A stretch of DNA of 63,747 nt, counting the filler, from Klebsormidium nitens (Eukaryota > Plantae > Klebsormidiophyceae), in the NCBI GenBank assembly GCA_000708835.1. It is 6 parts of 6 records of this genome, joined end to end, with 100 filler letters (N's around TTAATTAATTAA, not from the genome) between each part and the next. Parts side by side here need not be neighbours in the genome. Positions count along the whole stretch, not along the records: positions 59,451 to 61,990 come from DF238672.1; 5 more parts are not named here. The stretch is one strand, 5' to 3'. The notes beneath the pieces were generated by a model. It saw nothing but the letters and a program-made list of their open reading frames with translations, made no database searches and was not told the origin of the DNA. Of this stretch, positions 2,220 to 61,990 are shown piece by piece (positions within the stretch are counted from its first letter, which is position 1; every line of letters starts with the position of its first letter). The position numbers were made by a program, and so were the translations under genes.

Positions 2220-2274
2220 TGAACACTGTTATTTCCAATAATTGTCGTTTGGGCAAACGATTGTCTTTTTGGGG

Positions 2275-3256: not shown

Positions 3257-4834
3257 TTCATGTCCGATAGACTCCCGTCTTCTCCAGAGCCACCAGGGGA
3301 TAGGCCAGGCCCAAGCTGCAACCCTGTACTGACTTGCAGGTTCGTGCCCCTTCTTCAACATTGCCAGTTAATTTAAACTCCAGAGTTTCGACGGAAGCTT
3401 AGGTTGAGGGCGGTTTTTGTGAACCAAGTCTGCAGGTTCAAGCTCAGCTGCAAAAGCGTTCTTTACAAACGCCAATCAAAATTGACTTGTCATGTTGAGT
3501 GGCGCCTTACGCATTGTAGCCTAGCTGCAATGGCGCGCTGCGTCAGCCTGCTAACGCCTTGCGCTAAGTGCGCCAGCTGTTGGTGGCTTGAACGAATCAC
3601 TGGGTGGTTGCACCACATTGCACGGCGCAGCTGGCAGCTGCAAGAAGTGGTGCTGCTTGGCGTTTTTCAGCTGCTGTTTGAGCTGGTAGTGCAAGTTGGC
3701 GCTGGCAAGAGCTGGCGCCGGCCGGCAGCAGGTGACTTTGTTTCAGGGGTAGATGCTGAGCTGGCGGCGGCAGGAGCTGGCGCGGTGGTGGCATGGCATG
3801 GCCGCCTCAAGTCACCATGTTTGCCATGTGGCTAATATCCACCTCAGCTTGGAAGCTCCAAGAACCATCTTCAGAAACAGAGAGGTGCTTAGTCCTGCAT
3901 AGAAGCATCTTCAAGGGGCAGAGCATGCAAGAAGAGCAGCAAGGAAAAAACGTCTAGTTGTCTTGACACGGGGGGCAGAGACGCACAAGCACAATAAGAG
4001 CGGCACGCTCCTGTCAGCGATTGGTAAGTACCAATTTTCTCTCCAATGCCTGTGCTGTCACCATGTCAATCGTTTTTGATATGCTCTGCATGCTCTGCTT
4101 TTCTGGTCAAGAGAAGGATCACGGCACATGCAAGACAAGTGCCGGGGTCTGGCGCCAGTGGCGTTGCTCTATTGTGCGCTTGCTTTTGGACTGATTGGGA
4201 TCTTGCTGGGGCTGAGGCCCGCTGTCTCATTGAGATGGTGCTCTATGTTAGAGCTGCTTTGCAGCCGATTGTCGGGCTGACGCCACTGCTGTTGTTGATT
4301 GTGCGCATGCTTTGGGGCTGATTGGGGCTTGCCAAGGAGCCGTTTTTGGACCTTGCTAGGGCTGAGGCCCCCTGTCTCGTACAAGGTTGTGCTCTCTGTT
4401 GGAGTTGCTTCGCAACCTTGCTTGCTATGGGCCTATTAATAGGTGCTTGCCATGGGCTTAATTTGTCGCGCGCTGTTGGGTGGACTTGGGGCCCGCTGTG
4501 GAGCTGCTTTCAGACCCTCTGTCAAGCTGGCGTTTTGCTCAGTCTGGGGCTGAATTGGCAAGTGCTATGAGGCTGATTTGTCGTGCTGTTTCGAGCTGAC
4601 TTGGGGTTCGCTGTGGGGCTTCTTTCGGGCTCGGCGCTGTCGGACTGACGTGTTGCTTGCAGTGGGGCTGATCTGTTGCTTTGTTGGGCTGATTGGTGCC
4701 TCCTGTGGGCTGCTTTCAGGCCGCTGATCCAGGGCCTACTGAAAACAAGCCAAAATCTTTTTCCATGTTTCAAGGTCCATGCTCACAGTGCCACGTGAGC
4801 ACTGACTCGATCTCCGCGCCTTGAATTGCAGACG

Positions 4835-7800
4835 ATGGAACAGTATGAGCCTTCAAGCCCGGCCTACTCTTGCCAAGGAGCATCCAAGGAAGGGACGACC
4901 AAGCGACCGGCAAACAAGAAGCGTCGGCGCAACAACGTGAGGGATCCACAGCTCCACGACACAGCTACCTCCAACGGCGGGCCCAGTCTTGAAGAGATGC
5001 AGGTGAGTACAGCTCTAGCCTCGCCCGGTTGCTCAGATATGCTTTCGATATCTCATGATTGTAGACAATTTTGTGCATGCTTTGAAATGGAGATGTGACA
5101 ATCTGCTGTGCGCCAAGTGGTGTGGCATGGTAGCTTGGTTCTTGCGCACTTGGATGTGTCCAAAACTGGCAGCTTTCTCGCACTTGATCAGCCGTCAAGA
5201 TTGTTTTAAAAAGTCACCCCATGTTGCTGAAGCTTTGATACCTCGGACGCTCAGCAGCAAACAACCGATGCATGTACATCTCTCATCTCTTCCAGGTCAA
5301 TGAAACCCAAGCTAGGGAAGTGCTCAAAGCACGGCCCGAACTCTTGGAAGCGATGCCACAGGATGACCAGGGTGGAGGGGAGATTGACAGCGCCCCTGAT
5401 GCGGTAAGACTGGATGCATTGAAGCCATTTTTCCAAACCTGATTGGCAAACAGGGCACCAACTCGAGCGCCTTGTCTGTCGTCAGCTGCGTCTCTTGCTT
5501 GGCTTAAGGTGGACAAAAACCAACAGCAAATTGGTTCTATTCCCTTCTCATTAAGCCCCCTTCCCAGCAGACAAGGCGAACAGCAAAGACTAGTGGAACT
5601 TCTACTGTAGCTGGCCGGCTACTGCTGCCCTCCTCTGGTAGACACTTTAGACAGAGATACGCGTCTCTTCTGTTGTCATTCCTCATTTTATGCTCTCCCT
5701 CTCCAGGCAAAAAGTGCCTCTGTAGAAGAAGGACCCTGCTCGCTTAAGCTTTGGCCTGATGCAAGCGCGCACACTGCATATCATCATATGGACGAGGCAG
5801 AGGGCAGCGCTGCCGATGGTGTGCAGCCGATGCTGACCCCCGTGAGGATCAAAGTGAGAACAACATCTTGAAAGCCCGATTCTCCCTTAGTAACAGCAGA
5901 CAGGATGAACGGCAGAGACACGTGGTTTGCTATCGCCGCCCCAAGCCTCACGCACTCTGCTGTCTGTGCTCGGGCTAACGGGAAGGACAGGAAAGACAGG
6001 TCTTTCTCATGTCGAGATTCACAATTTCGTGCTCTCTCTTTGCAGGTGACAGGCAGTTCTAAGGAGAAAGGGGGTGGGTCGCCTGGTGCAAGCGCGCACA
6101 TGGAAGGTCGCGTGCACGCTGTGGAAGGTGGCGCCGCCGATGGTGCACAAACAAGCGGGGTAAGTCTTGACGAAACACCGGTCAAACGACCCAACTCTTA
6201 TGCACCCCTTGCGCTTGGGACTCTTCCTGAAGGAGCAACAAACAGGACGGACAGCAGAGACACGTGTGTCTTCTATCGTTGCCCATGTTCTCAAGCATGT
6301 CGCCGTCTGTGCTTTGATGGACAGGACGGACAGCAAAGACACTTTTCCTTCCTGTCGCCGTTCATACTTGTGTGCACTTGGCCGTCTGTGCTCTGGCAGG
6401 CAGGTAGAAGAGACAGCAAGGACCGCAAAGCAACGTGATCCTCCTGTCCTTGTTCATGACTCGCTCCTTTCCCCCTGCAGGTGGCATGCGTTTCTGCAAA
6501 AGAAGGGGGTGATTTGCCTGGTGCAAATGCGTGCATGGAAGAGAATGCCGGAGCTAGCGATGCGGAGTCGCAAGCGGACTCGTCCTGCAACCCGGGGGCC
6601 GGGGGGAGCTCCGAGCCGGCGTCTCCTTTCGAGGAACCGGACCTGGCGGACCCCGAGCTTCGGTCGGAGGTGGTGCGCGAGCTCGAGAAGCTGCTGTCGA
6701 CCTGGGGCGACAACACCTCGATCTTCTGCGCCGCCAAGCCGTCCTCCACGGGCCCTGGGGCCGTCTACGAATTCTGGATCGCGCCTGGCGGCCGCGTGAC
6801 GTGCCCCTACTTTCCGGCATCTCGCGCGAGGGTGCACGACAGCACCAACTTCGGGCTTCTGCGGCGGGGGTTCGAGGTGACGTACATCTGCCACGGAGAG
6901 AGCTGCAAGGCCACCCCGCGGTCGGGCAACTTTCGCCTGGGCGTCCTCATTCTGCCAATTGCCGCGGCCTTTGGCGACAGCCAGCCCTTGAACAGTGAGA
7001 GGGACCACCTGTACTCCGACCGGCAGCTGCTGCCGCTGCCCTTCCTTCGAGAGAATCTGAACGTCAAGAAAGGTGAGTCGAATGGTTATCAATCAGTGCT
7101 CACTGTTTCTCGTGAAGGCGTGACTGGAAGTCACGCCTATGAAGCTCTTAAGTTACAGCTTGCAATACTACCCCTTTCTTTGAGAATGCTGTGGTAGGCC
7201 AGGCCTACGGTTGCTACCTACAATCGCATTCTAGGTTTCTACTCTTTGCTCGCTTAACTCGAGCATACTTGCAGATGTCATTTTGCCCTTTGATAACGTG
7301 ATAACTTCTAGGAAGCACTTCTTGTTTGTATTTGTGCACATGAGATTTCTGTATCTCTCTGGACTTGGATAGCAATAGTTGCTGCCAAGCTACAACTGGT
7401 CACTCCCTAAGGCTCCTTTTCAGTGATTCTCGCACGTTTCTGTTCTTCAGTCTGACAGCAATAGTAGCTCTCGAGCTATGATTGGTCCCTACAACTGCTT
7501 TTTAGCTACAAATCTCGCACTTTGTGCGTGCCCTTTACTTCTGCAAAGCTGTTGGCGAGGGTATGTAGTGCTTCTTCCTCAAACAGAGAGTTCTTTGTAC
7601 CTGCAGGAGACGTTGGTGGCGCCATCATCCTGGAGCGCCTCTACGTGCGGACGGGCCTGAAGTTTGCCTTCACCTCCTCGGGCTCGTTCTATTGGTCCGG
7701 TCGCTGCTGGGCCAAGGACGAGAGCGGCGGCCGGATCCTGCGGGTGCTCCGCGAGGAGCTCTCCAAGATCGAGGCCGCGTACATGCAAGAAGCAGAACAG

Positions 7801-10313
7801 GGGGAGGGAGAAGGGCGTTCGATCGTCATGGCCGACGGACCGGCAGGCGATGAAGACAGCGGGTTGGGCGCGAAGGGAGGCCCTCCAATCAGGTCGAAGC
7901 CGGCGGGTGGCGGGAAGCAGTCCAAGCCGGAGAAGGAGGAGAGGCTGATCAACATCAATTTCAATGCAAAGATGTCCAATATCCTGGGCACGTGCAAGGA
8001 ATACTTCTATCAGCCCGGCTTCCAGTCCCTCCTGGACGTGCAGAAGGACTTTCTGGCTGTGGCGAACGGCGTCATCGACTTGCGGACTGGCGAGCTGCTC
8101 CCGCATTACCCCCGAGTGAGTGATGATTTCGTGCTCGCGCAAAGATGCAGATCAGGCTAGGGACTTCATCGAGAAGTTTGGATCATGGAGGCATTGGCCA
8201 GATCCACCGGCCAGCCGGTAGACCTCCTTATTCAATCGACTAGCACTAGGCCGAACCCTTTCAAAGGCTCTGGCGACTCTCCTAGCCCTTGCTCCCCAAG
8301 GGTTGCTTTTGTTGTGAAGCCCTCGGCAGATGAGATTGCCGTTTGTGCCGTCTTTGCTGTCCGACATTCTCATGGGTCTGCAATTTGCACTGCAGTTCAT
8401 GAACAGCCGGGTGATCGACTGGCCGTACCCTTGCGCTGGGTTGTCATTTCCGAGGGGCGACATGGTACGGTTCTTGGAGGACATCATGCACGCCTCCGGA
8501 GAGGATGGGCCGGCCGCTCTGGAGCACCTCCAGGTACTGCTGGGGTACGGGCTGACTGGTCATACAAGCAATCAGGTAGGTGCTCCTTTCAAGTGCTTCA
8601 TGGACTTGATGTATTCACGGGCTCCTTGAAACTTCAACAGCCCAACAATCGCATGAGGTCTTTGGCCATTAGCACGGGATCCTCATTGACCAATTGCTAT
8701 AAGACCAAATGCTGTGAGACTACGTTGTGAAGGATTGCGAATCTTTGGCCCATCGACTGCCACCCATTTATGCGAAGGTCTCGGCGCTTCCCCCGTTTTG
8801 TGGTGAAGGTCACAACAGAGGACTCTCGTGGAAGGTGGCCCTCCACATCTGCAGCCCTGTGAAGTCTTTTCCTCAAAATACTTCTCAGGTACTGCCGATC
8901 TTTGTTGGCGAGGGGAGTGCAGGCAAGAGCGTTTTCCTCGCCCTGCTGCGCAAGCTCCTCGGCGCCGCCTTCAAGAATGTCGGCAAGGAGATTCTGGTGA
9001 ACTCAAAGGGGCAGCGAGCCGCCCACAAGGGGGCCGCTTCGCCGCTCGAAGCGGGTGAGACTCCACCAGAACGTCCTCTTTCTCCAAAAGTCAAATATGA
9101 TGCTGCATCTCATTCGGTTAGGGATGCATGACAGTTTGTCTGATGGCAAATTATCGTGTTGGTCTTGTCGATCCTGTCTGATCGTCCTGCAAACTACAAT
9201 GTCCTGACTCAGCATTTTACCTCATCGAATATTGTCGGAAATGCAATGATCAGTCCGCCAGCAGATTCTCGTGTCCGTCCTTTCGATCCTGTCTTCTGGG
9301 CTATCCAATCTGTGTGTTTTTATCGGAACATCTTTGCTTTTTGTGCAGGGCTTGCTGGAGCGCTACTAGCGGTGGTCGAAGAGACCGACAGATCCGATAC
9401 GCTTAACGAGGCCGCTATGAAAAAGCTCACCGGCAGCGATGTCATCACCGCTCGGCCTTTGTTTCGGGACTATGTTACCTTCACCGCAACCGTTCTGGTG
9501 AGGCCAATGTATGTTCGTCCGCAATCTATTGCACAGCATGGATTGCGATCGAACTCTTGCACTTGAATGAAGATCAGCAGCAGTAGGACTTGATCTCTTG
9601 TCAGCGGCAAGAGGGCTTGATCTCTTGTGGCATGCTCGAAGTTGCTGAAGTGAGCCAACCAAATTCTGATTGCGCCTTCTTCGCCCCATTTGCAGCTCAT
9701 CATCTGCACGAACTACCTCCCGAGGACGGACAAGACCTGGTCCGTTGCCCTCCGGCGCCGCCTCCAGCTGGTTTGCTTCGTGCGGCGCTACTTCTCGCCC
9801 CACGAGAAGGGGTACGATCCGGCCAACCCGTTGCACGGGCTGGTGGACACGCGACTCCTCACCAAGCTGAGCACCTTGCAGAACATGCAGGAGTTGCTCG
9901 CATGGCTGGTTGCAGGAGCGGTGAAGTGGTACCAGAACGGACAGCAGCTGTACCCCATGCCGAAGCGGAGCATGGACGCCCTGCAGGACTACGAAGAGGC
10001 GGCGGACGATTTCGACAACTTCGTCCTCAACAGCTGCGTCAAGGGCGATGACCTCTTCATCTCGACGAGCGATGCCCTCAAGGTGTACAACGACCCGCAG
10101 AGGATGGTGGGCGGCAAGTGCGTCGGCCATATTCCCTCGCTTGACACCAAGTCGCTGAAGTCGGCAATGAACAACCACGGCTTCTCGGGTCCGGACAAGC
10201 CCAGCAAACTTGGCCTTGGTGTAAAGTATTGCGGCGTAACGGAGCGAGGATATAAGGGTCTTGCGCTGAAAGCCCTAGAGGTTAAGACGGAACAGGAGGA
10301 GAGGAACCATTGA
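4835..10313 (+). CDS. Spliced D5-like SF3 helicase, about 912 aa: low-complexity N-terminus, UL52/PrimPol-type Zn finger, D5_N, SF3 helicase
   Basis: Exons 4835-5002, 5296-5403, 5707-5841, 6046-6159, 6481-7072, 7607-8115, 8396-8575, 8889-9054, 9349-9497, 9696-10313 (2739 nt, GT-AG, phases consistent). Motifs: LAVANGVIDLRTGELLPH (D5_N), LQVLLGYGLTG, Walker A GEGSAGKS, Walker B AVVEE, KKLTGSDVITARPLF, motif C IICTNYLP, Arg finger ALRRRL. The first four exons are less certain. Confidence 0.85.
5890..6430 (+). repeat. Degenerate ~80-bp intronic repeats containing GTCTGTGCT...GGACAGGACGGACAGCA(A/G)AGACAC
   Basis: Copies near 5960-6000, 6240-6270, 6303-6345 and 6381-6430, in introns 3 and 4 of the D5 gene. 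Confidence 0.7.
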
Positions 10314-10399
10314 ATACTCGTGGTTTGGAAGATCGGCCAGGATTGATTGTATTAAGTGAAACTTAAGTACTTTAGGCTGTTGTTTAGTGTGAATGTCGT

Positions 10400-10690
10400 A
10401 TCTTTCCCGGTATGGCCTTACATACATACATATTGGCAATTGGATCCCACAAGGAAAACCTCGTACTACTAATCTGTCATATTCTCTTCTCCAAAAAGTC
10501 CATTACAACATTGCATCTTTTCCGGTATAGCCTTACATACATACATATCATCAATCCAGAACCAAAGGGAAAAGTTTGTACTACTAATCTGTTATAATTC
10601 CTTCCCTGGAGAAGAAAGAAATTATAACGGATTATAGTATAAACTTTTCGGATCTCGGCCGAGGTTGCTAATATGTATGTATCTAAGGTT
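10400..10690. repeat. AT-rich ~80-bp unit: two direct copies (10400-10480, 10515-10598) plus one inverted copy (10621-10688) forming a hairpin
   Basis: CCTTACATACATACATAT...GTACTACTAATCTG repeats at an offset of 115 bp. 10621-10688 (ATTATAACGGATTATAGTATAAACTTTTC...ATATGTATGTATCTAAGG) is the imperfect reverse complement of 10531-10598, with a 22-nt loop. Confidence 0.85.
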
Positions 10691-10769
10691 GGGCCGCCAC
10701 TCTCACATGTCGGCCGGCTTGGTTGTAGCGTACGAGGAATCGTACGACTAAAGCATAAAACGGCTGGAC

Positions 10770-11285
10770 ACGTGTATCTTCTGTCCATCCTGTCCTCCTT
10801 TCAATTCGTTTAATAAAGATTCACAATGTTCAAACAATCTCGGTGGTCCAGTCAAGTGCAAGCCGGACTTGGACACGAGCATTTCCTGTCCGTCCTGTCC
10901 TCCTGTCGACTCGCTCCATGAATTACAATATTCCACTCAGATTAGGTGGTATGGTCAAGTGGGACCCGGACTTAATTGGACACGAGCATCTCATGTCCGT
11001 CCTGTCCTCCTGTCGACTCGCTCCGTGAGTCACAATATTCAACTCATATTAGGTGGTATGGTCAAGTGGGAGCCGAACCTGGACCCGAGCATTTCCCGTT
11101 CGACCTGTCATCCTATTGACTCGCTCCATCAATTACAATTTTTGCAACATATCAGGTGGCATGGACGGTCAAGTGAAAGTCGGCCCCGGACTCGGGCACA
11201 AAGATCACCCGGTCCGTCCCGTCCTCTTGTCGACTCGCTTCATCAATTACAATGTTCGCAACATATGAGGTGGTATGGTTAAGTA
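10770..11285. repeat. Tandem repeat, ~103-114-bp unit, about 5 copies
   Basis: (A/C)GGTGG(T/C) anchor at 10841, 10944, 11051, 11154 and 11268; units carry GTCCGTCCTGTCCTCCTGTCGACTCGCTCC or variants. Confidence 0.9.
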
Positions 11286-11296
11286 TAAGGTGACCT

Positions 11297-11905
11297 TTGG
11301 CCACACCATGGAAACGGTGTATTCCTTTTTTCTTGGTGCACCGTAGAAACCTTGACTTGAATGGACGCAATTTTGGGCTATCGTCCTCCAACCACTTTTG
11401 CAATCGAGCTGTTTTGGAGAGTGGAAAGACCGCAATAGTGAGATCTTACAGAGAGTTTGGGATGCTTGAAACCATTCTTGATCCAGCAGCCCTTGCAGGA
11501 ATCCGCGCTCTTGCAGAACCATTCAACTTGCGTCATATTACCAGAGCGCTCGTGCGATCTCTGAATGCTGAAGGATTTCACTCATATTGGGATCGAAGCG
11601 GCATCCACGGCCCATTTGCTGTCAAGGTCAGTTGGCGGGTTGCTCTCAAGAACGCATCTCGCGCTCAACGTCAAGCAAAGAAGCTACACTCAAAGGAATC
11701 CCGATTAAAAAACATGTCGCATGAACGAGAGTCAATCCTTCCAACCGCTTGCACAGACATCCGTGCCCGTTCTCCATTGAGTGCCCAATATGCCCCTAGC
11801 ATGGTGTGGAGTGATGCGCCAATCTTGGAATTAGAGGCGCTTGCAAACCCCAACAAGGTTTGCCATGCCACCGAATCTTCACGGGATGCCTCTCCTAGAT
11901 ACTGA
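11297..11905 (+). CDS. Hypothetical protein (first ATG at 11462)
   Basis: Only a 202-codon open frame between the repeats and the recombinase; no recognisable motif. Confidence 0.3.
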   Translation: MATPWKRCIPFFLVHRRNLDLNGRNFGLSSSNHFCNRAVLESGKTAIVRSYREFGMLETILDPAALAGIRALAEPFNLRHITRALVRSLNAEGFHSYWDRSGIHGPFAVKVSWRVALKNASRAQRQAKKLHSKESRLKNMSHERESILPTACTDIRARSPLSAQYAPSMVWSDAPILELEALANPNKVCHATESSRDASPRY

Positions 11906-12164
11906 ATTGCTAAGAGGCTCCGTTTTGGAGATTGTGTACACCTATATTCGTGTATCTGGCAAAAGTCGGACATCGGCCGATAGTGGAGTGGCGTAAAAGC
12001 CCCTATGTCGGGTTTTAGAAGCTTTTGCGTGTGAGATAACCATGAAAAGCTCCTAGGCGCACCAAAACGGTGAAAACAAAGATGAACACGGATATTCGGT
12101 ATCTGAGCACTTTGTGGCCAGATGCCGTTCATCTTTAATTTCTTGGTATCCTGATATCAGGAGC

Positions 12165-13217
12165 ATGGCAGCTTCAGATGCAAACACAAAGGTTATAGCA
12201 ACTTTGTCGTTAGCAGAACGGCTGCTTCACGAAATCTTTGATGACTCGACACGAAAGCCGCACACGGTCGAGCAGTACTGTGCACGAGTGATGCGCCTCT
12301 TCAAGAGGATGCATGCTCCAAGAGAGGACTTCGAGTCACTTGAGTGGGTCCGAGATACGACCCGTATCATTGAGTTCCTTGATAGCGTATATTCCAATAA
12401 ACTACCGACCCAAGCAACGAGCATCAGCCCTCTCCTTGTTATTGCTCGGAAACTATGGCCCAGTGATCAACAGACCTACGAGGCACTTTTCAAGAGATTC
12501 ACTTCGGTGAGAAAGGCCATGGAAGAAGCTCGACCACCCCAGCACATGTCGGAACGAGAAGCCAAGAATTGGAGATCGCTAGATGATATTAATCAACGGC
12601 GCGTCGAGCTTCAACGGAGGGTCAATCGATCTATTGCGCCAAAGAAACCAGAAGAGGTCACGGTTGGGGACAAAGTGACGCTCTGCCGCTACCTCGTGCT
12701 CTGTTTGTACACACAAATGCCGGCGATCCGTAATGATTGGAGCAATCTTCCCATTGTGCGCTTCGAAGAGGTTGGGAGCACTGCCGCGCGTGAGCTCATG
12801 GCGGGATCTCGCAACTACCTCCTGGAGTATGCAAAGGGCAGCTATAGGCTCCACCTGAAGTCCTACAAAACCGACAAGAAGCACGGACCGCAAATTCTCG
12901 ACATACCGGTCCGGCTTTGCAACGTGATTGCGGAAAGTCTTGATATTTTTCCGCGAAAGTACCTGCTCAGCCGAATGAGGACACCGGACGCTCCAATGGG
13001 GTCCGGCTACTTGACCAAGTTTCTGGCGGCAATTTACCCCGATTCAAATTTGGGATCGTGCCTCCTGCGAAAGATCACTGTCAGCAACGCGATGAAGGAT
13101 GCGCCATCCCTTCAGGACAGAGACCAGCTTGCCAGGTCAATGTTGCACACGGCTCCAGTAGCAATGCGCCATTACGAACTCAAGTACAGACCCGATGGAA
13201 CTCGGATCCAATTCTAG
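12165..13217 (+). CDS. Tyrosine recombinase/integrase of the PLV/virophage (OLV11-like) type
   Basis: Intronless 350-aa ORF: LCLYTQMPAIRND (R), NYL..YRLHLKSYKTDKKHG (K), SCLLRKITVS (R), LARSMLHT (H), MRHYELK (Y). Confidence 0.85.
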   Translation: MAASDANTKVIATLSLAERLLHEIFDDSTRKPHTVEQYCARVMRLFKRMHAPREDFESLEWVRDTTRIIEFLDSVYSNKLPTQATSISPLLVIARKLWPSDQQTYEALFKRFTSVRKAMEEARPPQHMSEREAKNWRSLDDINQRRVELQRRVNRSIAPKKPEEVTVGDKVTLCRYLVLCLYTQMPAIRNDWSNLPIVRFEEVGSTAARELMAGSRNYLLEYAKGSYRLHLKSYKTDKKHGPQILDIPVRLCNVIAESLDIFPRKYLLSRMRTPDAPMGSGYLTKFLAAIYPDSNLGSCLLRKITVSNAMKDAPSLQDRDQLARSMLHTAPVAMRHYELKYRPDGTRIQF

Positions 13218-13257
13218 ACGCTCAGGCTCTTCAACCAACTCGCCACTTACCCCTCAT

Positions 13258-13593
13258 TCAGGAGACTTCGATACTTGTGAACGCACCTAAAGGGACGGTG
13301 GGGGCTTTGAATTCGCCTCCCATGTCCGAGGGGACAGCCGTCCGGGGCACATCATACCCGGCGTCTATCAAGCGTCGAATTGTGGCTTTGTGGAGCTTTC
13401 TTGTGGTTCCAGTAAGCAAGCGTTTGTATGCTTTTTGCATGAGGATGTTCTCCCGATGTCGGCCATAGTATCTTCGAACGGTCTGCGCGTGTTCCACATG
13501 GTGTTCTTTTTGGTAAGCGCGACTCGTCTCACAAACGCGGCAATGACATGGATAAGTGTCGGTGTCGATCAAAGGACTTGTGATTTGGACCAT
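13258..13593 (-). CDS. Small basic hypothetical protein with CxCxxC motif
   Basis: ATG-initiated 111-aa ORF that fills the space between the recombinase and Prim-Pol genes; CHCRVC, then VRRYYGRHRENILMQKAYKRL. Confidence 0.55.
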   Translation of the reverse strand: MVQITSPLIDTDTYPCHCRVCETSRAYQKEHHVEHAQTVRRYYGRHRENILMQKAYKRLLTGTTRKLHKATIRRLIDAGYDVPRTAVPSDMGGEFKAPTVPLGAFTSIEVS

Positions 13594-13699
13594 GACGCCC
13601 TACAATGAAGCTTCGAAAAAAAGTGGTACGAGAACGCAGATGTCAAGGGAGCGCGTTCCAACCGTCTCATATTCTTTCCTCACTGGAGTATAGAAAGGA

Positions 13700-15384
13700 A
13701 TGGCTACGTCGGATGTTGAACGGGCAAACGCCTCTCGATCCCAGGGGAAGGCTCAGACAGCCAGAGACCCCAAGGCCCTAGGACCCGTCAGCATCAGGAA
13801 CGAGATCCAACGACTCTGTAACAACGGCTTATACGCACTACCAGTGTCCGTCTCTTGGGATCGGAATAAAGGGTCGAAGCATGCTGACTTTCCTGACAAG
13901 TATGCACATATCAAAGAGACAGAGGCATGGGGGCGGTCCATCAATCAAGCGATGAAGGAAAAGCGGGATGCAAACGGGCTTGCAATACTCGCGGGAGTCA
14001 GTGGAGTGTATGTGCTAGATATTGATGTGGCTGCAAAAGGGGGAAAGCGACCAGGGACAGAGCTCTGGCAGCAACTTGTTGAGATCCACGGGGACTCACC
14101 GGAGACACTGAAAGCAAGGACCGGCTCTGGTGGGTTGTATATGTACTTCAAGCTCGACTCTCCAGGTCTCACGTGGAGACGGAATATTCAAGGTCTCAAG
14201 GTCGACGACAAAACTTTTGGCGTTGATGGAAGAGGAATTGGTGGTGTTGTGTTCGCTTCACCAACAAGCTACTTGAATGCTGACGGCGAGCTTGCAACAT
14301 ATGAGTGGCTCAGTGATGGGCCTCCTAGCACCGACGCGTGCCAAGATATGCCCATTTGGCTTGCAGAAATGATCAACAATCGTGCCGGTCATACTAGTGC
14401 GGCGACAAGCGGAGAGGAGCAGGGTGGCAAGGTTTTGGGAGCAAGCATTGATGCGTCCATGCCAGGACGTGTGGAAAGTCCAAGCTTCGAGCAAGATCGC
14501 TCGAGCCCAAGTTTGGAACCGCCACACTGCAGGGAGCTCTTGCTGGCAGAACTCTCAAAATTGCTATTAGAGAAGGCCGGCGATTCAACAAGCACGTACG
14601 CATGGTCGTTACCACACGGCCTGTACGGGACATACTATTGCTACCGGACGCATGGGCCTCGAAGGTGCTTCTTTGGCCATACGCACTCGGGGAGCAACAA
14701 CTTCAATCTGCTCAAGAGGGGACGGCATGTATACTACCGCTGCCATGGAGACGAGTGCTCGCACAAGCCCGCCAAAAAGTTAGGGGTCTTGGAGAACTTG
14801 AAGGCCGCCTTGCAAGATGCTACCGCAGATCCCGTGGATCCTCACGACGACATGCGAGTTGTCACTCAGTACACAAGGGAGACGCGAGATGTGCAGGATT
14901 TGCTGCTCAAGATCGTGATTGAGCACGCCGCTCCTCAAGCGTACGCCAATCTCGGGCGCCTCTTTGCATATATGTACATGATCGAGGGTCGAATTTTGGT
15001 GACCACGAACGAAGCAGAAAGGAGTCGAGATCAGCTCTTTTTTGTCTGGGACGGGACTTCGTGGGTACAAGACACCTCGAATCTGGTTTCGAGCGTCTTT
15101 ACATGTCAAATGGGTTGTCTCTTAACATGGTATGAGAGGCAGAGAGAGAGGTGCTTGGGCACTTTGTACGCCAGCCGCCCCGAATTAGAAGGATTTGTGG
15201 TTGACGGTGTTCTCAAGCCTCTCGACTCCGAACAAGTCAATCCCAAGCAGATGAGGAAGATCAAGATGGCTATGGAGACGTGCGCAAAGGAGCTTGATAA
15301 GATCATGCCAAGTTTTGGAAGGATCAACGTCCAAGATGTTGCTGATGTACGCAAGTGCTTGCACTCTGCTGTTAGAGAGCTGCA
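13700..15384 (+). CDS. Bifunctional primase-polymerase (Prim-Pol) plus UL52-type Zn finger plus start of a D5_N-like domain; truncated by a gap
   Basis: Intronless, more than 560 aa. GLAILAGVSGVYVLDIDV (DxD), TGSGGLYMYF, GVDGRGIGGVVFASPTSY; Zn finger RCFFGHTHSGSNNF..VYYRCHGDEC; FFVWDGTSWVQD. Confidence 0.85.
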
Positions 15385-36219: not shown

Positions 36220-36500
36220 TATACGCACGCCGTCTGGACAGTTCTGGACATATTCGTGGACGCAAATTACGGTCTTCATAGACAGCAGGGCTGTCTATGA
36301 AGAGCAGGGTCCATCTACAAAAATCCGCTGGATGGACGGCTCGGACGGCTCGGACAGCAGTCCCAGAGTTCTCAATAATTCCGAATTTCCGAATATCTCA
36401 CCCACAAATTACGCTCTTCATAGACAGCATGCTGTCCATCAGGTGCGGAGTTCGTCTACAAATTCCCCTGGATAGACAGTAAGGGCGGGTCGGACGGAAG
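36220..36500. repeat. Cluster of short hairpins and duplicated GGAC(A/G)G motifs
   Basis: Perfect 14-bp arms at 36273-36286 and 36290-36303 (TCTTCATAGACAGC-AGG-GCTGTCTATGAAGA); degenerate copy near 36407-36438; GGACGGCTCGGACGGCTCGGACAGC near 36333. Confidence 0.75.
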
Positions 36501-37599
36501 TATTCTGAGTCCCAAAGTTTCAAGTTTCCGCCTTCAGCCTCAGGCTTCGAATTGTTGCGGCTGCCTACGGTGCACAGCTCGCAACACTGAAGTGTCATCA
36601 GTCTCTCCCGCCTTTTTTTTGCTGACTAGCTAGGCGATTGTTCTTCGAGAAGGTACGAGTCCTGCTGCAGCTGCTCAACTTGAAGTTGCTGCCACAGTAC
36701 TGAGTACAGGTAGGGCTGGGTCTGAGAGCAACCTTTTGCATAGTCACTTGTCAGAATCAAGGAGGCTGTGACTTAAACGACGCAGAGAGGAGACTTTGAC
36801 CTGACCAATAGCCTATACTAGGAGGCGACACTCGTGATCTGCTAAGAAACAGAAGGAGCAATACCAGGGGTGTAGAGTGGGAAGCTACATGAGAGCACAC
36901 GCCATACTTAGAAGTGGCAGCGAAGGGTTTGCTGGCAAATCTTCTGCTTGGGAGTCTTTTTGCGAACCGGGCAGCAGCTGGGCCTGAGGCAGCCGTCCAA
37001 AGACGCAAACTTCCGTGTTGAGCTGAGTGGAAAGTTCAGCAACGCGCTGTAGGAGACACTGAGCACTTCACATTGAATGGGCCCGGTGGGTCACCATCAG
37101 GTATTCGCTTCTTACTCCGCTTTCTAACGCTCTCAGTCAGCAGTAAGTGCCCCTGCAGACTTCCATCGATTGTTCAGCTGATGAGAGTGGATCAAAATGC
37201 AAAGTCCTGCTGTTTAAAGAAGGAGAGCTTGCAAAGCAGCTGCATGAACGGCCGCAGAAGTGGCCCTGATGGCAGAAGGGTTGCAGAAAATATCATATAT
37301 GTGAGACAAAAAAAAAAATTCCCGGCAAATTCTGATTTCGTGCAGATATAATATCAAGGCATAGTTCTAGGTGTTCTTCTGTTTACTGAGGATATGATGT
37401 ATGACAAGCAGGGAGTAGGAAATGGCAACTTTGGTGGCTGCATGATCAGCAGCAGCGACGTGCGCTGATGGCAGTAGGGTTGAAGAAGAGATTAGAGCTG
37501 TGAGACAAGAGTTTGTTTCTTGTTGAGTTGGGCATGGCGCTCGTGACCAGAGACCAAGTACTGTTTTTAATTGCAGAAAATGAACTCCTGTTTCGAATT

Positions 37600-39308
37600 G
37601 CAGAAACGAACACGCAGAGTGGCCAGCTGTGTTAACTGTCGCGGCAGTGGCGCTGGGGTTGTCGAAGAAAATACACCTCAATACTCTGGAACGCTGCAGG
37701 TTATCGTTGCCGCTCGGACACTCCACAACCTGTTTCCTATGGTACTGACTCCAGTCTTTTCCTCAAATTCTGCAGGCATAATCAAGGCCCTCAACGGCTT
37801 CTTCAACAAGGTCACTGAGGCACTCCGGCTGAACGAGGTCCGGGTTTACTTGTCTCAAGCAGAGGAGAAGGCGCGCCAGAGGCGGAAGAAGAGGACGAAC
37901 AGACAGGTGTCTGATTTTGCCCCTGCTTTGCCCTCTTCTCCAGCTTGACTTCGGAATCATAGCTGGCGCGACTGAGCTGCATGCTTCCAGGCTCTTTAAC
38001 AAACCTCTCGATAGATCTTGCATATGCTGGGAACTCGTCTTTTACATCACATGGCCAGCAAAACACGGGTTGCTTGACCTTAGCTCAACCTTGCGAGGGT
38101 TGAGCTGGGGTGCAAGGGTCTCAGCTGATTGACAACATAGCCGGCATTGACCGCTTGCAGTAAGGTACTCAACTTTCCTTTCTGATCCTGTGGTTACTGA
38201 GTTGAACCCTCAACTCTAGAGCAGGACTTGTGTGCTGGAAGATTTTCGCTCAAGTAACTCCAGTGTCAACTTAACTGCAGTTCTTGTTTTTCTTTAGCAC
38301 TGCCAAAGGGTCGTGAACCGCACCGAGACATGGGCTGCATGGAGTGGAGCGGCGTCGCATCTTTGTGACGAAGCCAAGAAGAGTGAGCCTGCTCCCTTTA
38401 CTCGCTCAGGCTGCTGTTCATGGTGAAAGCTATATAGGTAGCTTGCTTGAAGCTCTTTATCTGGTTCTCCTCGTGGACCTTGTTCTATCCGATCATTTTG
38501 GAGATTGTGGGAAGGTTGAAGTAGAGATACTCCTCTGCTATTGGTGGCACTTTGTCGCAGGAGACAAGTCGAGGAGTAGTGTTTCATGTGTGAGAAGGTG
38601 GCGGACATGGCTTGCAAAGTACTCTGCAGCGTCGAGCTTGGCACTCTACCCCAAGTACGGGGGCATTTTGAGAGAGACGAGGGAAGAACAATTACAGATC
38701 AGTTCGCTTCAGTATTGCTCACCATTCCAAAGCTGCCAAGGCGGCTCCAAGTGCCAAGTGTTGACATCTTGGATGCTTTATGGGAAGCTAGTGTGTTCCA
38801 GGTAGTACAACAGTAACACGCACTGTAGTTGGAGTACAGATTTGTTGCTTTGACGACGTCTCGCATACCTGCAGCTCATCTGCATTAGGTTTGACACAAC
38901 AGAGGAAAGTTCAACCCTTTTTTGATTCTGACGTCATCTCTCTGCATGTCTTCAGCCCATGAGAGAAGGACGTGCGCTTACACCGGTGTACTAAAACGAA
39001 CAGTGCAGACCCGTCATCATTCGGCCCTCCTTGACTCGTTTCTTTAGGCCGTATTCGGTTGATCGCTTCTCAATGAGTCGTCATTGCCCCTTTACCCTGT
39101 TAGTCCACGTCACTGTCTGCTGGAGCAGCAGTCGTAACCTTTCTTCTTCCGAGATTTACAGTGATGGAATTGTTAACCTTCAAAGCACTCCCAGTCTCTT
39201 CATTGATTCGTATTTCTTCTCTGCAGCACCAGCGCCGAGTCTTTGACCGAGGCCGTGGAGCTGCTAACCAAGGTTGCTGACCACGCTGAGAAGCAGCCTG
39301 GGCACGAG
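37600..39308 (+). CDS. Uncharacterised spliced gene, interrupted by the TIR element
   Basis: AG/GT-bounded open segments near 37604-37700, 37776-37905, 38297-38380, 38560-38655 and 39227-39308. Confidence 0.35.
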
Positions 39309-39859
39309 GTGCGTACACATTGATAGCGGCACAAAGAGACAGTGGGGATACCGTCCTTGCGAAAAGCGTCCCGGTGAGCCGTTGCTTTTGCAAGACTCTT
39401 TTTTTTTCCGTTGGAGCTTGTGTTGCTGCTTTCTGTGCAAAGATGTCAACCACTCAGCTAAGCGGAATTGGACTTCAAGTTCAACGCGTAATTAGCATTG
39501 AAGACATCTGATTGCCGAACAGGAGCCGTATACTTCCCTGATTGATTTTGGCTGTTCCGCTTTTTGCAAGCAATCCCGAAAGCGGCCAGGGCCCGCAGGG
39601 CTTGAAGGGCCCGTTGCAAGGTCCTTTTTGTGTCACATTTTTCCGGGGGCTGTCACGCAGACTCGAAAGGCTTCCGGCTCTAAGAAACCACTACACTATA
39701 ACGGCAGCTTGATAACAAGCTCTAATTTTAGTGATTTAACTGATGAAAGGAAAGACCTGTGAGGACGAGAAGATTCATCACTGTGTGAAGTTCCAAAGTC
39801 CCCGGTGTTTTTTACCGAGTACTGAGAGTTTTCCAAACCTTCTCTTTCTGGTTCTGCAG

Positions 39860-42286
39860 GATGCTCGTCAACCTAGATGACTTCAAGGATTTTCAAGAGA
39901 AGCTGAGGGAAGAAATGCACAGAGCTGGCATGACTTCCATGAGCAACAAAGATTTGCAGGTAGGCATCTCTTGTAATCTTCGTAGTTGAAAGTTTGTCCC
40001 GATAGGAAGCACGGTTGTCGAAAAATCTGTCTTTTTGGAGCCTTTTGTGAGATGAACTCATAGTGTGTACAGTTGTGTCCGGTTCCTTCTAAATATATAA
40101 GCTTTGCGTCTATTGGAGCAGTTCTGTCTGTGTAAGAGGACTTGGGGCTTGTCCAAATTATTGAAACTCCCAGGCTTTGTGAGACTGCTGTCCAAGCCGT
40201 TTGTGCCGTCCATGGAGACAACTTTGTGATAGAAAGTGTGTCTTGATAGACAGCACGGCTGTCATCAAGCACATTCTCATTTGTGAAATCTCGTGAGAGG
40301 GCTTGGGGCTCGTTCTAAATCTAAAAGCCCACAGTTGTTGGGATTGCTATCAAAGCTCTCTCCTTTTTCAATTGAAAGAGAGTTGTAGGAAGTATGTCTC
40401 AAAGCATGGCCATCCTGAATGCCGTGCTTTGCCTTGTAGGGGACCAGAGGTGATGACCAAAATGCCGTTGAAGGCATCTCAGCTGAGCCCGCATTGGGGC
40501 TAGCTGGCGAAGGGGATGCTGCGGAAGAGGGTGCACGTGTCACGAATGCGGAGGGGGCAGAGCGCTCCGACTTCCGCCAAAATGTGAGTACTCTGTACAC
40601 TTTCGCTGCTCGTCAAAAATCCATCACCGATTGGGAGGCTTCAATGCGCAGCTTAGAGAGCACAGCAATGCCACTTTGATGTCGCTGTGGTTACTTAGCA
40701 GGTCCAATATTGGCTTGATCCACTTTTCGGGACTTTCCCGATTGCAGCCTGGAGGTCTGGAAAAGATCGTCCTAAATACGTACATGCACTTTGCAGTCCT
40801 ATGTGCCAACGTCCCCCGTCTACAACAAGCGCAACTTCCAAGCGACACATGATGCTGACTTGAACGCCCCGCTGGTGAGTACCGTCTCACCTCTTTTGCT
40901 GTTATGGTGTGCGGAAAGCCCGTGCTTGTTGGTAAGAGTGCCGTCCATGGAGACGAAACTTGTACTACGGATTCGTCTCCATGGTCAGCATGGACGGCAC
41001 TGACGGCACTTTTGGGGAAGCTCCTCTATTCATTTTTCTCTGAGCTCTCAAAAATCATTGCGTGCTTGATGACAGTGGTGCTGTCCATGGAGACAAAACT
41101 TCTACTACGGAATTGTCTTCGTGGACAGCACGGACAGCACTGATGGCTCTTTTGAAAAGCTCTCTTTTTTCTTTACTTTTTGACCAGGTTCCGTGCTTGA
41201 TAAGAGGAGTGCTGTCCATGCTTCTCCGTGGACTGCACAGAGTGCAGTGACGCTCTTCCAAGAAGCTCCTTGATGTACTTTGATGAGGTTCCGAAACTAT
41301 GTCTTTGATGACAAAAGTGCTTTGCTTTCTTAGCTTCAATTAAAAAGCTCTGCTATGTCTGTTTGTTGTGCAGTGTCACGACCCTAAAGCTAACACTTCT
41401 CTGTCTACCACACACAGGAAAGGGGCAAAAAGCGCAAACATGACGAAGCAAGGGGCAAAGCTGGTGCGGCGAGCGAGCCATGTGGAGAAGGTCGCGAGCA
41501 GGTGGTCGAGAGTGAGACGGCGGGTGCAAGGGAGGAGTCGGTAAGAGCATGCAAAGCTTCTCATTATCTACTTCATGTCTCGTTCCACTTGGTAGACTGT
41601 GACTTTTTGTGAGGTTTGCAAAGTATTGTCTGCGCCGTCCGTGCAGTCCATGGAGACACTTTTCTAAATGAACGGTTGTCTCCATGGACGGCAGTATTGT
41701 CTAGCTCCGCAGTCCTCACTTGAGACATTTTTGACTGTTGATAACGTTTGAGATTCTCTGACATCTCGGACGTACTGTCTTTGCTGTCCGTGCTGTCTAT
41801 GGAGACAAAAACCGTAGTAGATAGCGCCTCTCCATGGACAGCACTGCTGTCAGCGCTTGTGAGCCTTCGACTTTCTGTGCAGACAGTTCGTTTTTCACCA
41901 GCATACAGGCCACACCGTTTACATTTTTCAAGCTATATTTGAGTCAAATCGAACAGCTCGATGTAACGAGCAGGTGCTTTGCAGTGGTGAAGCCACTTAG
42001 GCTGGCAAGTCTGCCGACTTTTATTGCAAGCCAACTTTTGGAAAGCAAGAAGTGAAAAAAAAAACTTTCATGCACTCCTTTCATGCAGGACTCAGAAGCC
42101 TCGTCGCAACGAGCAGCGTCTTCTGGTGGGGACGACTGCGAAGAGGCTGACGACGAGACCTCTGAAGAGGACGAGGAAGAGACCATGTCGGACCGGGAGA
42201 TGTTGGACAACCGCCTCCAGCAGGTTGACTCTGCCCATGATCATCGTCGTGCGGACCAAGAAAGAGAGATTGGTGCAGATCGGATG
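39860..42286 (+). CDS. Spliced acidic/low-complexity gene fragments inside the TIR element
   Basis: Exon-like blocks near 39860-39960, 40439-40583, 40798-40875, 41419-41541 and 42089-42286, each with an AG acceptor and GT donor. Confidence 0.45.
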
Positions 42287-42680
42287 GTGGGTAACTTGTT
42301 TTACAATCTGTTCAGCATTGTTGGATTTGAGCTTGACTGATTTTAGCAAAGTGGTGGGATCTTAGGAACCGATATCCTTTGAAGGTTTGAAGATTGTCCG
42401 CCTCACTTCGGTTTTCGTTTTGAAAGCAGCGCATCTATGCCACCAAGCGCTGACAGCAACGCTGTCTATGTAGAGGCGCCATCTACTACAGTTTTGTCTC
42501 CATGGACAGCGCAGCCAGCGCGGACAGTGCTTTCAGGATCTTCTGAATTTTTTGCTTTCTTTTCGCTGACAGCCCACCGAGCACGGACAGCAGCGCTGTC
42601 TATGTAGAGGCGCCATCTACTACAGTTTTGTCTCCATAGACAGCGCGGACGGCGCGGACAGTGCTTTCAAGATCTTCTGA
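40186..42680. repeat. Dispersed hairpin repeat family GCTGTCCATGGAGAC-N(~20-25)-GTCTCCATGGACAGC, at least 7 copies in both orientations
   Basis: Copies near 40203-40256, 40938-41010, 41078-41147, 41631-41700, 41782-41858, 42444-42548 and 42585-42680. Confidence 0.85.
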
Positions 42681-42949
42681 AAGCTCCAACGGAAAAAAAA
42701 GAGTCTTGCAAAAGCAACGGCTCACCGGGACGCTTTTCGCAAGGACGGTATCCCCACTGTCTCTTTGTGCCGCTATCAATGTGTATGGCGGACTTGAGTC
42801 CAGAACGCGCCAGAACAAAGCGCATTGAGCTTTGTTGAATTCCAGGGAGCCCCGCAGCTGGGCGGGTCTTAGCCCAGAACGCATCAAAGGAGGGCGGATT
42901 GAGCCCAGGCTAGTCCGGAAAGCCCTTGTGCGAAGTGGGCGGGACCTCA

Positions 42950-59450: not shown

Positions 59451-61990
59451 GAGGGCTCGCGCGACATCCTCGTCATCGCCGATCCCAAGCGTAACGCGGT
59501 CTTTGCAAAGTGCGACAGCACGCGTCTGGACTCAGTGACGGGCGTGTGCTGCAAGGGGCTGCCCGCGCGGTACCTGGGCCCGTTCTACGTGGACGTCGAG
59601 ACCTGGAAGGACGGGGCGGTGGAGGTGAACATGCGGTACCTGGAGCGGAAGCCGCTGGCCGCGGCGCCCATGGACCTGCAGCTGATTCGCGGCGGGTTCC
59701 AGGAGCTGACGGACATGGTCGTTCTCAACGACGTTCTCAACAAGTGAGTGTCAGAGCTCGTTAGGCCCTACTAAAAGACCCAACTCTTTGCTTGAGAGCG
59801 TCTTTCGCGAGATGTGGTCCGACCCGTTGGTGAACCAGGCCGAACTTTTCCTCCATTCAGAGGCATATGGCAAGCAGTCTGGCCATTTTTGTTGGACCGC
59901 ATCCTGCCAATGACTCTTATGAACTGTTCGAGATAGTCTTGCGCAAGGTGTGGTCCAGTCCTTTCGCCAGTCAGGCCGTCCATCCTCCCCTTTCTTGTTC
60001 AAACGGCTCAAGCACTTTTGCCCTTTGTCGGACCACGCCGTGTCAGTGATTCTTAACCGTTGGGGAGAGCCTTGTGCAAGGTGTGTCTACTTGCGCAGAT
60101 CAGATTGGTCGTTGAAAGGCTTATGACAATCAGTTTCTAGTCGACAGTCAGTTCTTCGTTAACTGGACCGCACCTTCTCAATGTTTTAAAGAAACTGTTG
60201 GAGAGAATCAGACCCAAGGTGTGGTCCAGCCCGTCCGTAGATCAGGTCGGCCATTCAGGCCATTGAAGAACATGCGGCAATCATTTCTGGTTCCTGGACC
60301 ACACTCTGTCAATGTTTATAAGGACTCCCCCTCTTCTCTGAGCCGAGCCTAGCGCAAGGTGTGGTTCACTCGTGCAAATCAGATTGGCCATGAGGGCCGT
60401 TCAAAGGGTTCTGACAATTGGGTTTTAGTTGACAATCAGTTTTTAGTTGACTGGACCGCACTCTGTCAATGTGGTCCAGTCGTGCAGATCAGATCGGCCG
60501 TCGTTCAGGCCGTTCAAAAGGCTTCTGGCAATCAGTTAGATTTAGTTGACAATCAATGTTTATTAAAGAAACCATTGAGAGAGAATCTGGCCCAAGGTGT
60601 GGTCCAGCCCGTCCGTAGAACGGACCGGCCATTCAGGCCATTGAAGAACATGCGGCAATCAGATTTGGTTCACTGGACCACACCCTGACAATGTTTATAA
60701 AGGACCCCCCTCTTTTCTGAGCCGAGCTTTGTGCAAGGTGTGGTCCAGTCTTGTGTGATGCTTCTGAACTGGCTTCTTTCTTGGTGGTTGTGTGAGCGGC
60801 TTTTCAAGGCAGATCGACGCTTATGAAGGACGTTGCAGGTCAATGCTTTCACAAATGGGACAACACAGTCGCCTTGGCTGAGCACTTGAACCCGCAGGTT
60901 TACTTTCAGCTGGCTCATGCAAAAGCGACTCCTCTTTGCAGGTGGCAGACTGGCCGCTACAAGGCGGCGCTGATCAGGAGCCCATGGACACTGCAAAATC
61001 GACGACCACCCGGGCCATCCTCCAGGAGCCCCCCCGACCAGAGACGGCCCTCGCGATCACCTACCGACAGACACAAGCCAGCGATGCAGCTGGAAAGAAC
61101 CCTGATTTTGCGCACTACGGCGAATTAAAAACGAAACGGGGGCGCGAGGTCGGGGAGCGCTTCATTGAGCCTCTCGCCGACAGGGAGCTCTATCCGCACG
61201 TCATCTGCCAGGTCGACAGCCTGCGTGGGCTCGTGGGCAACGACGCGCCCGTTCCGGCCTTTGACCTGGTCATTCTCGACGAGAGCGAGTCCATTCTCGC
61301 GCACCTCTCGGCCGACACCCTGTCGGTGAGAACCGTCATCATCCGGCTGATTGCCGAGCTGCTTCGCCGCGCGCGCAGGGTCATCTGCCTGGACGGACAT
61401 CTGGGGCAGCGGACCTTCGACTTCCTGACGCTGCACGGGATCCGCTGTTCCCCCGTGATCATCAACAAGCACGTGCCGAAGCGGCCTCTCCAGTTCGAGT
61501 TTCTTGAGGGGCGGGCTGGGCTCCAGCTGTGGGAGAGCGCGATCTTTGAGGCGCTCGAGGCCGGTCAAAACGTGTTTGTGGCCAGCATGTCGTCGGACAG
61601 GGCGCGGAGTCTGGGAAGTGCGGTGGCAGAGCGGGGGCTTGTGGACGAGGGACAGATTCTCGTCATCACGCGGCACTCTGATGGGGAGGTGAAGCGGGGC
61701 CTTGGGAATGTGAACGAGAGCTGGGCAAAGCGGCTCGTCATCATCAGTCCCACGGTGGAGGCAGGGGTGGACTTCAATCGGTCATGGTTCCACAAGATGT
61801 TCATTTACATCTGCAAGAAGAGCACGCACCCGCGCGGGCTTGACCAGATGAAGGGGCGGGTCCGGCAGCTGGTCGACCCCGTGGTCCTGTGCTTTGTCAG
61901 GAAGGGCATCAAGCTGCCGACGACGGGGCCAGAGGGAAGCGGGTACAGGACTGTGATGGGGAAGAATGCGGGACGGGTCCCGAGGCTTGG
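59451..61990 (+). CDS. Spliced UL9-like origin-binding SF2 helicase; partial (gaps at both ends) with a 1-nt frameshift near 60982
   Basis: Exon 59451-59743, intron 59744-60941, exon 60942-61990. Motifs IRS/PMDTAKST (I), LAITYR (Ia), ICQVDSL, DLVILDESESIL (II), VICLDGHL (III), ISPTVEAGVDF (V), QMKGRVRQL (VI). Confidence 0.8.
59945..60750. repeat. Array of ~135-140-bp palindromic units AAGGTGTGGTCCAG...CTGGACCACACYCT inside the UL9-like intron
   Basis: Left arms at 59945, 60078, 60216, 60356, (60470), 60594, 60735; right arms at about 60028, 60163, 60294, 60451, 60673; 60185-60345 is duplicated at 60563-60725. Confidence 0.9.

Follow-up and report, generated by a model that had tools for sequence, protein, structure and literature searches.

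An array of inverted boxes within a spliceosomal intron of a predicted virus-like primase-helicase gene in Klebsormidium nitens

In this study we analysed a 63.7-kb window of DNA of Klebsormidium nitens, i.e. the whole stretch examined, in which fixed linkers of N and TTAATTAATTAA connect six pieces. One of these pieces (2,540 bp; 59451-61990) carries a spliceosomal intron containing an array of seven units of 110-141 bp, followed by a final forward box that constitutes a half unit (59808..60748). The intron interrupts a gene which, judging from its homologs, encodes a fusion of a virus-like AEP primase with a UL9-like SF2 helicase. We tentatively favour the view that the array is an intronic palindromic minisatellite, inherited together with this multi-copy gene.

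The primase-helicase gene and its intron

The open reading frame downstream of the array (60942..61990, plus strand) matches the Pfam family Herpes_ori_bp (PF02399; E 1.3e-13, above the curated cut-off). This exon encodes a UL9-like SF2 helicase domain and ends at the contig edge, before the C-terminal domain. The upstream exon (59451..59743, plus strand), whose 5' end is cut at the contig edge, corresponds to the end of the primase-side region: it gave no Pfam match on its own, and it is 82-90% identical in four homologs, and 61% in a fifth, to the residues directly upstream of the helicase. No stretch of the gene was found on the neighbouring pieces of the window. Nine of the 14 longer homologs are named K. 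nitens proteins and six of these nine are 80-96% identical to the helicase exon; the gene thus belongs to a multi-copy family of this streptophyte alga.

The full-length homologs are composed of a low-complexity N-terminus, AEP primase motifs (present in P0003, P0006, P0007, P0012 and P0013), the helicase and a C-terminal domain. The AEP region was read in these homologs, and the corresponding part of the gene described here lies beyond the contig edge. The initial annotation referred to an origin-binding protein gene; the upstream AEP primase of the homologs indicates that the gene is probably a primase-helicase fusion rather than a plain origin-binding protein gene. A pseudogene reading was rejected: what looks like a frameshift near 60980 results from an assembly slip, since contigs without any other difference from this copy have one more base there.

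The Walker A loop of this copy (60975-61010), as well as those of P0003, P0004, P0005, P0007 and P0012, contains D and A at the positions occupied by G and G in P0006 and P0013; by sequence comparison, the expanded subfamily appears to have spread with an altered loop. The N-terminal regions of P0003, P0012 and P0014 contain a motif which we take to resemble 2A ribosome-skipping peptides, with G replacing the usual D, and W replacing the final P. Eight K. nitens homologs have locus tags, seven of which are numbered first to third on their scaffold (one scaffold is of 474 kb). These locus-tag numbers, which are the sole basis of the estimate, suggest that the copies are located at scaffold ends, like repeats or subtelomeric elements.

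The intron (59744..60941, plus strand; 1,198 nt, GT..AG, phase 2) is placed approximately 13 codons before the helicase Walker A motif. Donor 59744 and acceptor 60941 restore the reading frame and the residues of the homologs, a result that none of the other six tested start positions gives, and the open reading frames flanking the intron (the upstream one at 59451-59744) match adjoining residues of the homologs. The corresponding joint (59743>60942) is present in all three RNA-type runs compared (X1, X7 and X13, from three studies), whose RNA status was guessed by the software; it is absent from DNA run X2, and from four DNA runs of one sample compared over 59700-60990. A single letter separates one of the X7 contigs across the joint from this copy, which means that splicing takes place in this copy or in one almost identical to it. 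The RNA-type runs of the three studies contain contigs that deviate very little from this copy, and in one such run a low-depth contig, which may be DNA or pre-mRNA, covers most of the intron. The location of the array in an intron of a UL9-like gene, proposed earlier from the sequence, is thus borne out by the PF02399 exon, by the homolog-matched exons and by the joint in the three RNA-type runs.

The position of the intron at the primase/helicase border is old, since five homolog gene calls that are only 55-69% identical stop at the same K or R; these calls, obtained in a representative search, were chosen because their match ended at the intron position. The 3' part of the intron, with the acceptor (60749..60941, plus strand), is non-repetitive and ~80-92% alike in paralogous introns. 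The intron gave no Rfam matches at E up to 1. Phage records contained no match.

Structure and distribution of the palindromic units

The array contains 14 inverted boxes of 15 bp in alternating orientation, eight of them forward (59808, 59944, 60077, 60215, 60355, 60465, 60593 and 60734) and six reverse (59892, 60028, 60163, 60294, 60451 and 60673). The units, bounded by inverted arms of 11-15 bp, are 136, 133, 138, 140, 110, 128 and 141 bp long, in this order. The forward box of unit 3, at 60077, is damaged and was placed by hand, while unit 6 has no reverse box. The 11-mer GTGTGGTCCAG occurs nine times in the intron (at most one mismatch, both strands); in 60 dinucleotide shuffles of the intron the best 11-mer count had a mean of 2.45 and a maximum of 4, which confirms the array with inverted arms noticed at the outset. 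Nine of the 11 matches to the 15-bp box found in the whole window at up to three mismatches fall inside the array.

Some dimensions given in the initial annotation needed revision. The array is present, but it starts at 59808, one unit earlier than the proposed 59945, and the six to seven units of about 124-141 bp are in fact seven units of 110-141 bp plus the half unit. As for the higher-order duplication, the offset of about 378 bp is real (375-379), though only ~200 bp, and not a block of 378 bp, have been copied. The two copies comprise unit 4 (60178..60374) and unit 7 (60553..60753) with their flanks and are 87% identical over 202 columns, representing a recent internal duplication, with the rest of the diagonal near chance (7-55% in 40-bp bins). 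The second copy shows the clearest overlap with the paralogous introns.

Overall, the units are ~60% alike, compared with 48% for shuffled sequences. Identity between pairs of units 1-7 ranges from 46 to 66% (shuffled null 48 +/- 4%), with the exception of units 4 and 7, at 89%. Tandem Repeats Finder does not report the array, because its units are only ~60% alike. Conservation is higher in the forward boxes (82%) and reverse boxes (75%) than in the long linkers and short spacers (~55%; nulls 46-49%, pair 4-7 excluded), a contrast inflated by the choice of the boxes as the best-kept part. Pairs of boxes fold as hairpins in both registers: as DNA, five of the 11 box-to-box segments have z-scores below -2.5, and three fold worse than shuffled sequences. 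Two changes within the boxes of unit 1 have matching counterparts on the opposite arm. The possibility that the array is an assembly artefact was rejected, as overlapping DNA contigs with 0-3 differences were found in all four runs, with a gap of ~100 bp in one of them.

The unit also occurs outside this copy of the gene. A contig of 946-965 nt, present in three of the four DNA runs, leads from the donor across 475 unlike letters into unit 7 and the last box, then across the 3' tail to the acceptor, and represents a paralogous intron of ~836 nt with ~80% identity. A second contig, of 749-761 nt, contains the donor, a reverse box and unit 7, and together with a matching tail contig implies an intron of ~890 nt. 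Thus, as read from these contigs, at least one and probably two paralogous introns have the array unit at lengths other than 1,198 nt, with the donor, the last unit and the 3' tail common to them. Loose ends in the DNA runs indicate another intron, of which both the start and the tail are unlike; one 561-nt array contig has no assigned place, and several loose ends lie at box starts. The array unit accompanies at least one, probably two, close paralogous copies, and the box is absent from all seven loci confirmed in viral contigs, which are only 27-30% identical.

In each DNA run, 21-27 of the 108,000-187,000 contigs match the stretch at 80% likeness, exon edges included. The unit accordingly seems to be tied to close paralogs and not to form a high-copy dispersed element at this level of likeness, a limit at which diverged copies (60%) would escape. 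No differences are listed inside the boxes of the paralogs, but this absence was left out of account, since a 30% share filter conceals differences wherever other units pile up. Contig depth was likewise not taken as a measure of copy number or expression, and soil metatranscriptome entries with small shares were excluded from the evidence.

A baseline scan of 105 windows, each of 1,200 bp, in which we looked for 11-mers with multiple copies in either orientation, revealed five windows with at least four copies each way, two of which owe this to a self-palindromic AT-rich word, one to the intron array and two (at 40200-42700) to a second palindromic family. The box of this family, TGCTGTCCATGGAGAC, has 17 matches at up to three mismatches, all within 36272-42630. 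Its units, both single and in tandem, have a period of 134-142 bp, long arms and a short loop, and most of them separate exon-like stretches of another gene, a plus-strand one with multiple exons. The contig piece with the second family contains no UL9-like match; the UL9-like gene is thus not alone in having palindromic intron units of ~135-bp period, and such an architecture needs no UL9-like neighbour. Two inverted 106-bp sequences (39314-39419 and 42681-42785), 99% identical and 3.3 kb apart, bracket most of the family; they could be the ends of an element or two copies of a small repeat.

Possible origin and role of the array

Intronic minisatellites and VNTRs are composed of head-to-tail units, differ in length between copies and may contain higher-order copies. 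The array described here has the same features, including length differences between paralogs and the internal higher-order copy, and departs from this pattern in that its units are only ~60% alike and are conserved chiefly in two inverted boxes. We suggest that the intron acquired the unit, by entry or by origin in place, before the primase-helicase subfamily underwent its recent spread, and that units were then gained and lost via slippage or unequal exchange. The latest event would be the copying of unit 4 to unit 7, and unit 5/6 would mark a deletion. Box hairpins, possible in either register, might help this gain and loss of units, and arm-to-arm pairing with conversion could preserve the likeness of the boxes as the linkers diverge. 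The array is excised from the mRNA, and no binding by the encoded helicase would be needed.

The head-to-tail arrangement, the truncations, the recent internal copy and the paralogous introns of other lengths are consistent with a minisatellite, as are the second family with a different box, the hairpins, the paired changes in unit 1 and the absence of an exact HSV box and of spacers that are AT-rich as a whole. On the other hand, the likeness of the boxes (75-82%) relative to that of the linkers (55%) would also follow from selection on binding sites, and the match of a forward box to the reverse box of its own unit is no closer than to those of the remaining units (0.77 vs 0.76), giving no overall sign of within-unit conversion. 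Moreover, the unit tracks the primase-helicase family and was not observed at high copy elsewhere, the predicted recognition helix of the family is conserved within the clade, and the second family differs in shape (short loop, long arms), with its gene possibly being element-borne.

It is possible, though doubtful, that the boxes are candidate binding sites of the gene's own product and that the array serves a primase-helicase mobile element as its replication origin or as an autoregulatory site. In this scheme, dimers arranged head to tail would occupy the inverted pairs of boxes, with the helicase opening the spacer and the fused AEP supplying the primers. The contig ends before the C-terminal domain, so we folded the homolog P0004 (89% identical over the common part; 44-sequence alignment, pLDDT 88, pTM 0.87). 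The best PDB match of the model is HSV-1 OBP, with residues 39-718 placed onto 64-817 (39-715 onto 67-817 in one comparison; Z 16.6-16.9, rmsd 13.8-14.4), and with 498 residues aligned at Z 16.9 and rmsd 13.8 in a whole-chain alignment; the other PDB matches listed end by residue 557. According to passages of PMC12543377, the OBP DNA-binding domain comprises residues 536-851, in which RVKNL reads boxes inverted around an AT-rich spacer, as in HSV oriS. The modelled match thus extends into this domain, and the C-terminal part is predicted to have an OBP-type fold. Its predicted recognition helix (626-646) and two-strand wing are 71% invariant among six close homologs, compared with 50% for the helicase, and differ in other clades, so the model makes a clade-specific DNA-reading surface plausible. 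Homologs of 55-70% protein identity (P0008-P0011, P0013, P0017, P0018, P0022, P0048, P0061 and P0113) have this predicted helix as well, wherever their sequences extend over it.

In agreement with an origin, the array consists of inverted boxes at regular spacing that have been preserved better than the linkers, and the unit recurs in paralogous introns. Neither RVKN nor R[VI]KxL, and hence no RVKNL, was found in the close homologs (there was one unrelated N-terminal match among the 44 sequences), and the three oriS boxes (Table 1 of PMC12543377) have no exact matches in the intron, and 0, 1 and 1 at one mismatch. Of the five short spacers (34-46 bp), four include a run of 15 bp with 73-87% AT, but the short spacers are 48-65% AT overall against 50% for the intron, and equally AT-rich stretches occur in the long linkers. 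The period and inverted-box design are also found without a UL9-like gene, the Walker A loop of the subfamily is altered in comparison with P0006, and element ends, an integrase or a capsid gene could not be linked to it, as the contig is of only 2.5 kb. The system therefore differs from HSV-1 UL9/OBP and oriS in several respects: an AEP primase is predicted at the N-terminus and RVKNL is absent, there are 14 boxes of another sequence in a tandem array instead of three, the spacers are not AT-rich overall, and the array, whose origin role is that of a candidate only, is located inside the gene's own spliceosomal intron.

Giant-virus primase-helicases match the P0004 model more closely than HSV-1 OBP, and in the viral-library folds giant-virus SF2 and origin-binding proteins scored best (TM 0.64-0.66). 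AEP-SF2 primase-helicases are described for mimivirus (R8), ASFV (pF1055L), Ostreid herpesvirus 1 and Yaraviridae in portions of bioRxiv 2024.02.29.582850, which name no cognate DNA site for this group. The algal protein resembles them in having AEP motifs followed by a UL9-like helicase, while its gene is nuclear, multi-copy and intron-split, and its homologs have long low-complexity N-termini. Scanning of viral contigs with the homolog alignment confirmed seven of 157 loci, all at 27-30% identity; they come from IMG/VR, and one carries a virophage-type capsid gene. That the box is missing from all seven of these virophage-like relatives also speaks against an origin, though at such identity they are distant. 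A scan of the viral contigs with the P0003 protein found no loci, and the homolog-alignment scan of metagenome contigs gave 141 candidate stretches, none of them confirmed.

CyRepA1 is a cyanobacterial plasmid initiator with a DEXDc-type Rep (parts of PMC10899382). In an atlas structure search with the C-terminal half, CyRepA1-type clusters are among the matches listed, at TM 0.55-0.56, which is under the atlas bar for naming a family; unlike the algal protein, CyRepA1 is a bacterial plasmid protein with a different primase domain, and the likeness is a lead only.

Klebsormidium contains giant-virus sequences, as stated in passages of PMC5294986 and PMC11244446. According to the portion consulted of bioRxiv 10.64898/2026.10.09.758095, endogenous giant-virus genes of Chlamydomonas have spliceosomal introns averaging 176 bp. 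Both cases would involve virus-type green-algal genes that gained host-type GT-AG introns and are expressed; that portion mentions no palindromic arrays, and no giant-virus context was seen at the Klebsormidium gene. In the openly accessible literature we found no published description of the primase-helicase family or of the intron array.

A bolder proposal, which we consider rather unlikely, is that the family represents an active capsid-less or virus-derived Klebsormidium replicon, with an iteron-like candidate origin in its own intron at the primase/helicase border. If so, origin-binding helicases of the giant-virus/virophage branch would have a natural site of recognition in the 15-bp box, and protein loading or hairpins at the array could couple replication to the transcription and splicing of the gene. 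Primase-helicases of the UL9-like type occur widely among giant viruses and virophage-like elements, as well as in some plasmids, and in the sections of the sources cited here DNA sites are named only for herpesviruses. The algal gene, spliced, multi-copy and with an intron that holds an array of boxes, offers a concrete candidate DNA site for the UL9-like family. If the array is only a minisatellite, there remain multi-copy, intron-bearing and apparently transcribed virus-like primase-helicase genes in a streptophyte alga, and recurring palindromic intron units of ~135-bp period.

We think it unlikely that the boxes act at the RNA level, pairing in the pre-mRNA and thereby compacting the 1.2-kb intron or tuning its removal, with a retained intron stopping the protein after exon 1 to give a primase-only product. 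The five inward pairs have nine G-U against five A-C on the transcript strand, and RNA z-scores are better on this strand in eight of the 11 segments and in both array halves; this strand bias is small, however, the units are not independent, and the second family has a similar bias (plus strand better in eight of 10 segments), which may be a compositional trait of introns. The low-depth intron contig and the old intron position at the primase/helicase border would fit such a role, but the contig may be DNA as well as pre-mRNA, and any phase-2 intron beginning with GTGA gives an immediate stop.

It is very unlikely that the units are dispersed MITE copies, piled up in the intron and unrelated to the gene, with the boxes as terminal inverted repeats. 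The short units, 11-15-bp inverted ends and variable middles are of this kind, and the 561-nt array contig and several box-start loose ends have no assigned place, but these loose ends resemble the spacers of the intron array itself. None of the six inward units has a target-site duplication and the five outward pairs have only chance-level 2-3-mers, though old copies may have lost it; furthermore, only 21-27 contigs per DNA run match at 80% likeness. The dispersed MITE or satellite named in the initial annotation as the case against a link with UL9-like genes was not found at this likeness. DNA pattern scans gave 38 matches in metagenome contigs and one in viral contigs, with none in a further scan, and all 39 were judged unrelated (no blastn similarity to the intron at E 0.01, no encoded homolog). 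Among the metagenome contigs, L012, L017, L028, L036, L039 and L044 contain an unrelated palindromic repeat of 78-81 bp with long perfect arms, present twice in one contig, which looks like a small dispersed repeat of its own.

Least probable of all, the array would be a cluster of host transcription-factor sites forming an intronic enhancer of the gene: GGACCAC within the box, which we take to be a class II TCP-type motif, occurs nine times in the intron (7.5 per kb) and six times in the rest of the window (0.10 per kb), and near-identical contigs are present in RNA-type runs of three studies, but the enrichment merely restates the repeat, we found no literature on GGACCAC in Klebsormidium, and an enhancer would not need strict alternation of orientation.

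Other elements in the window

Another piece of the window (1080-15384) contains genes for a tyrosine recombinase (1080-2228), a D5-type primase-helicase interrupted by stops (~7468-9566) and a Prim-Pol protein (13694-15384), the last of which has multi-copy relatives in K. nitens. Its gene content indicates that primase-helicase elements are probably represented here by a second family. The Prim-Pol gene is separated from the D5-type gene by a tandem array of ~4-5 units of 107 bp (10765-11284), which is another candidate element origin; a link between it and the intron array was rejected (best match 18 nt, E 0.72). The tyrosine recombinase gene is adjoined by a 140-bp direct repeat (2275-2414 and 3120-3259), whose copies are 98.6% identical and 845 bp apart.
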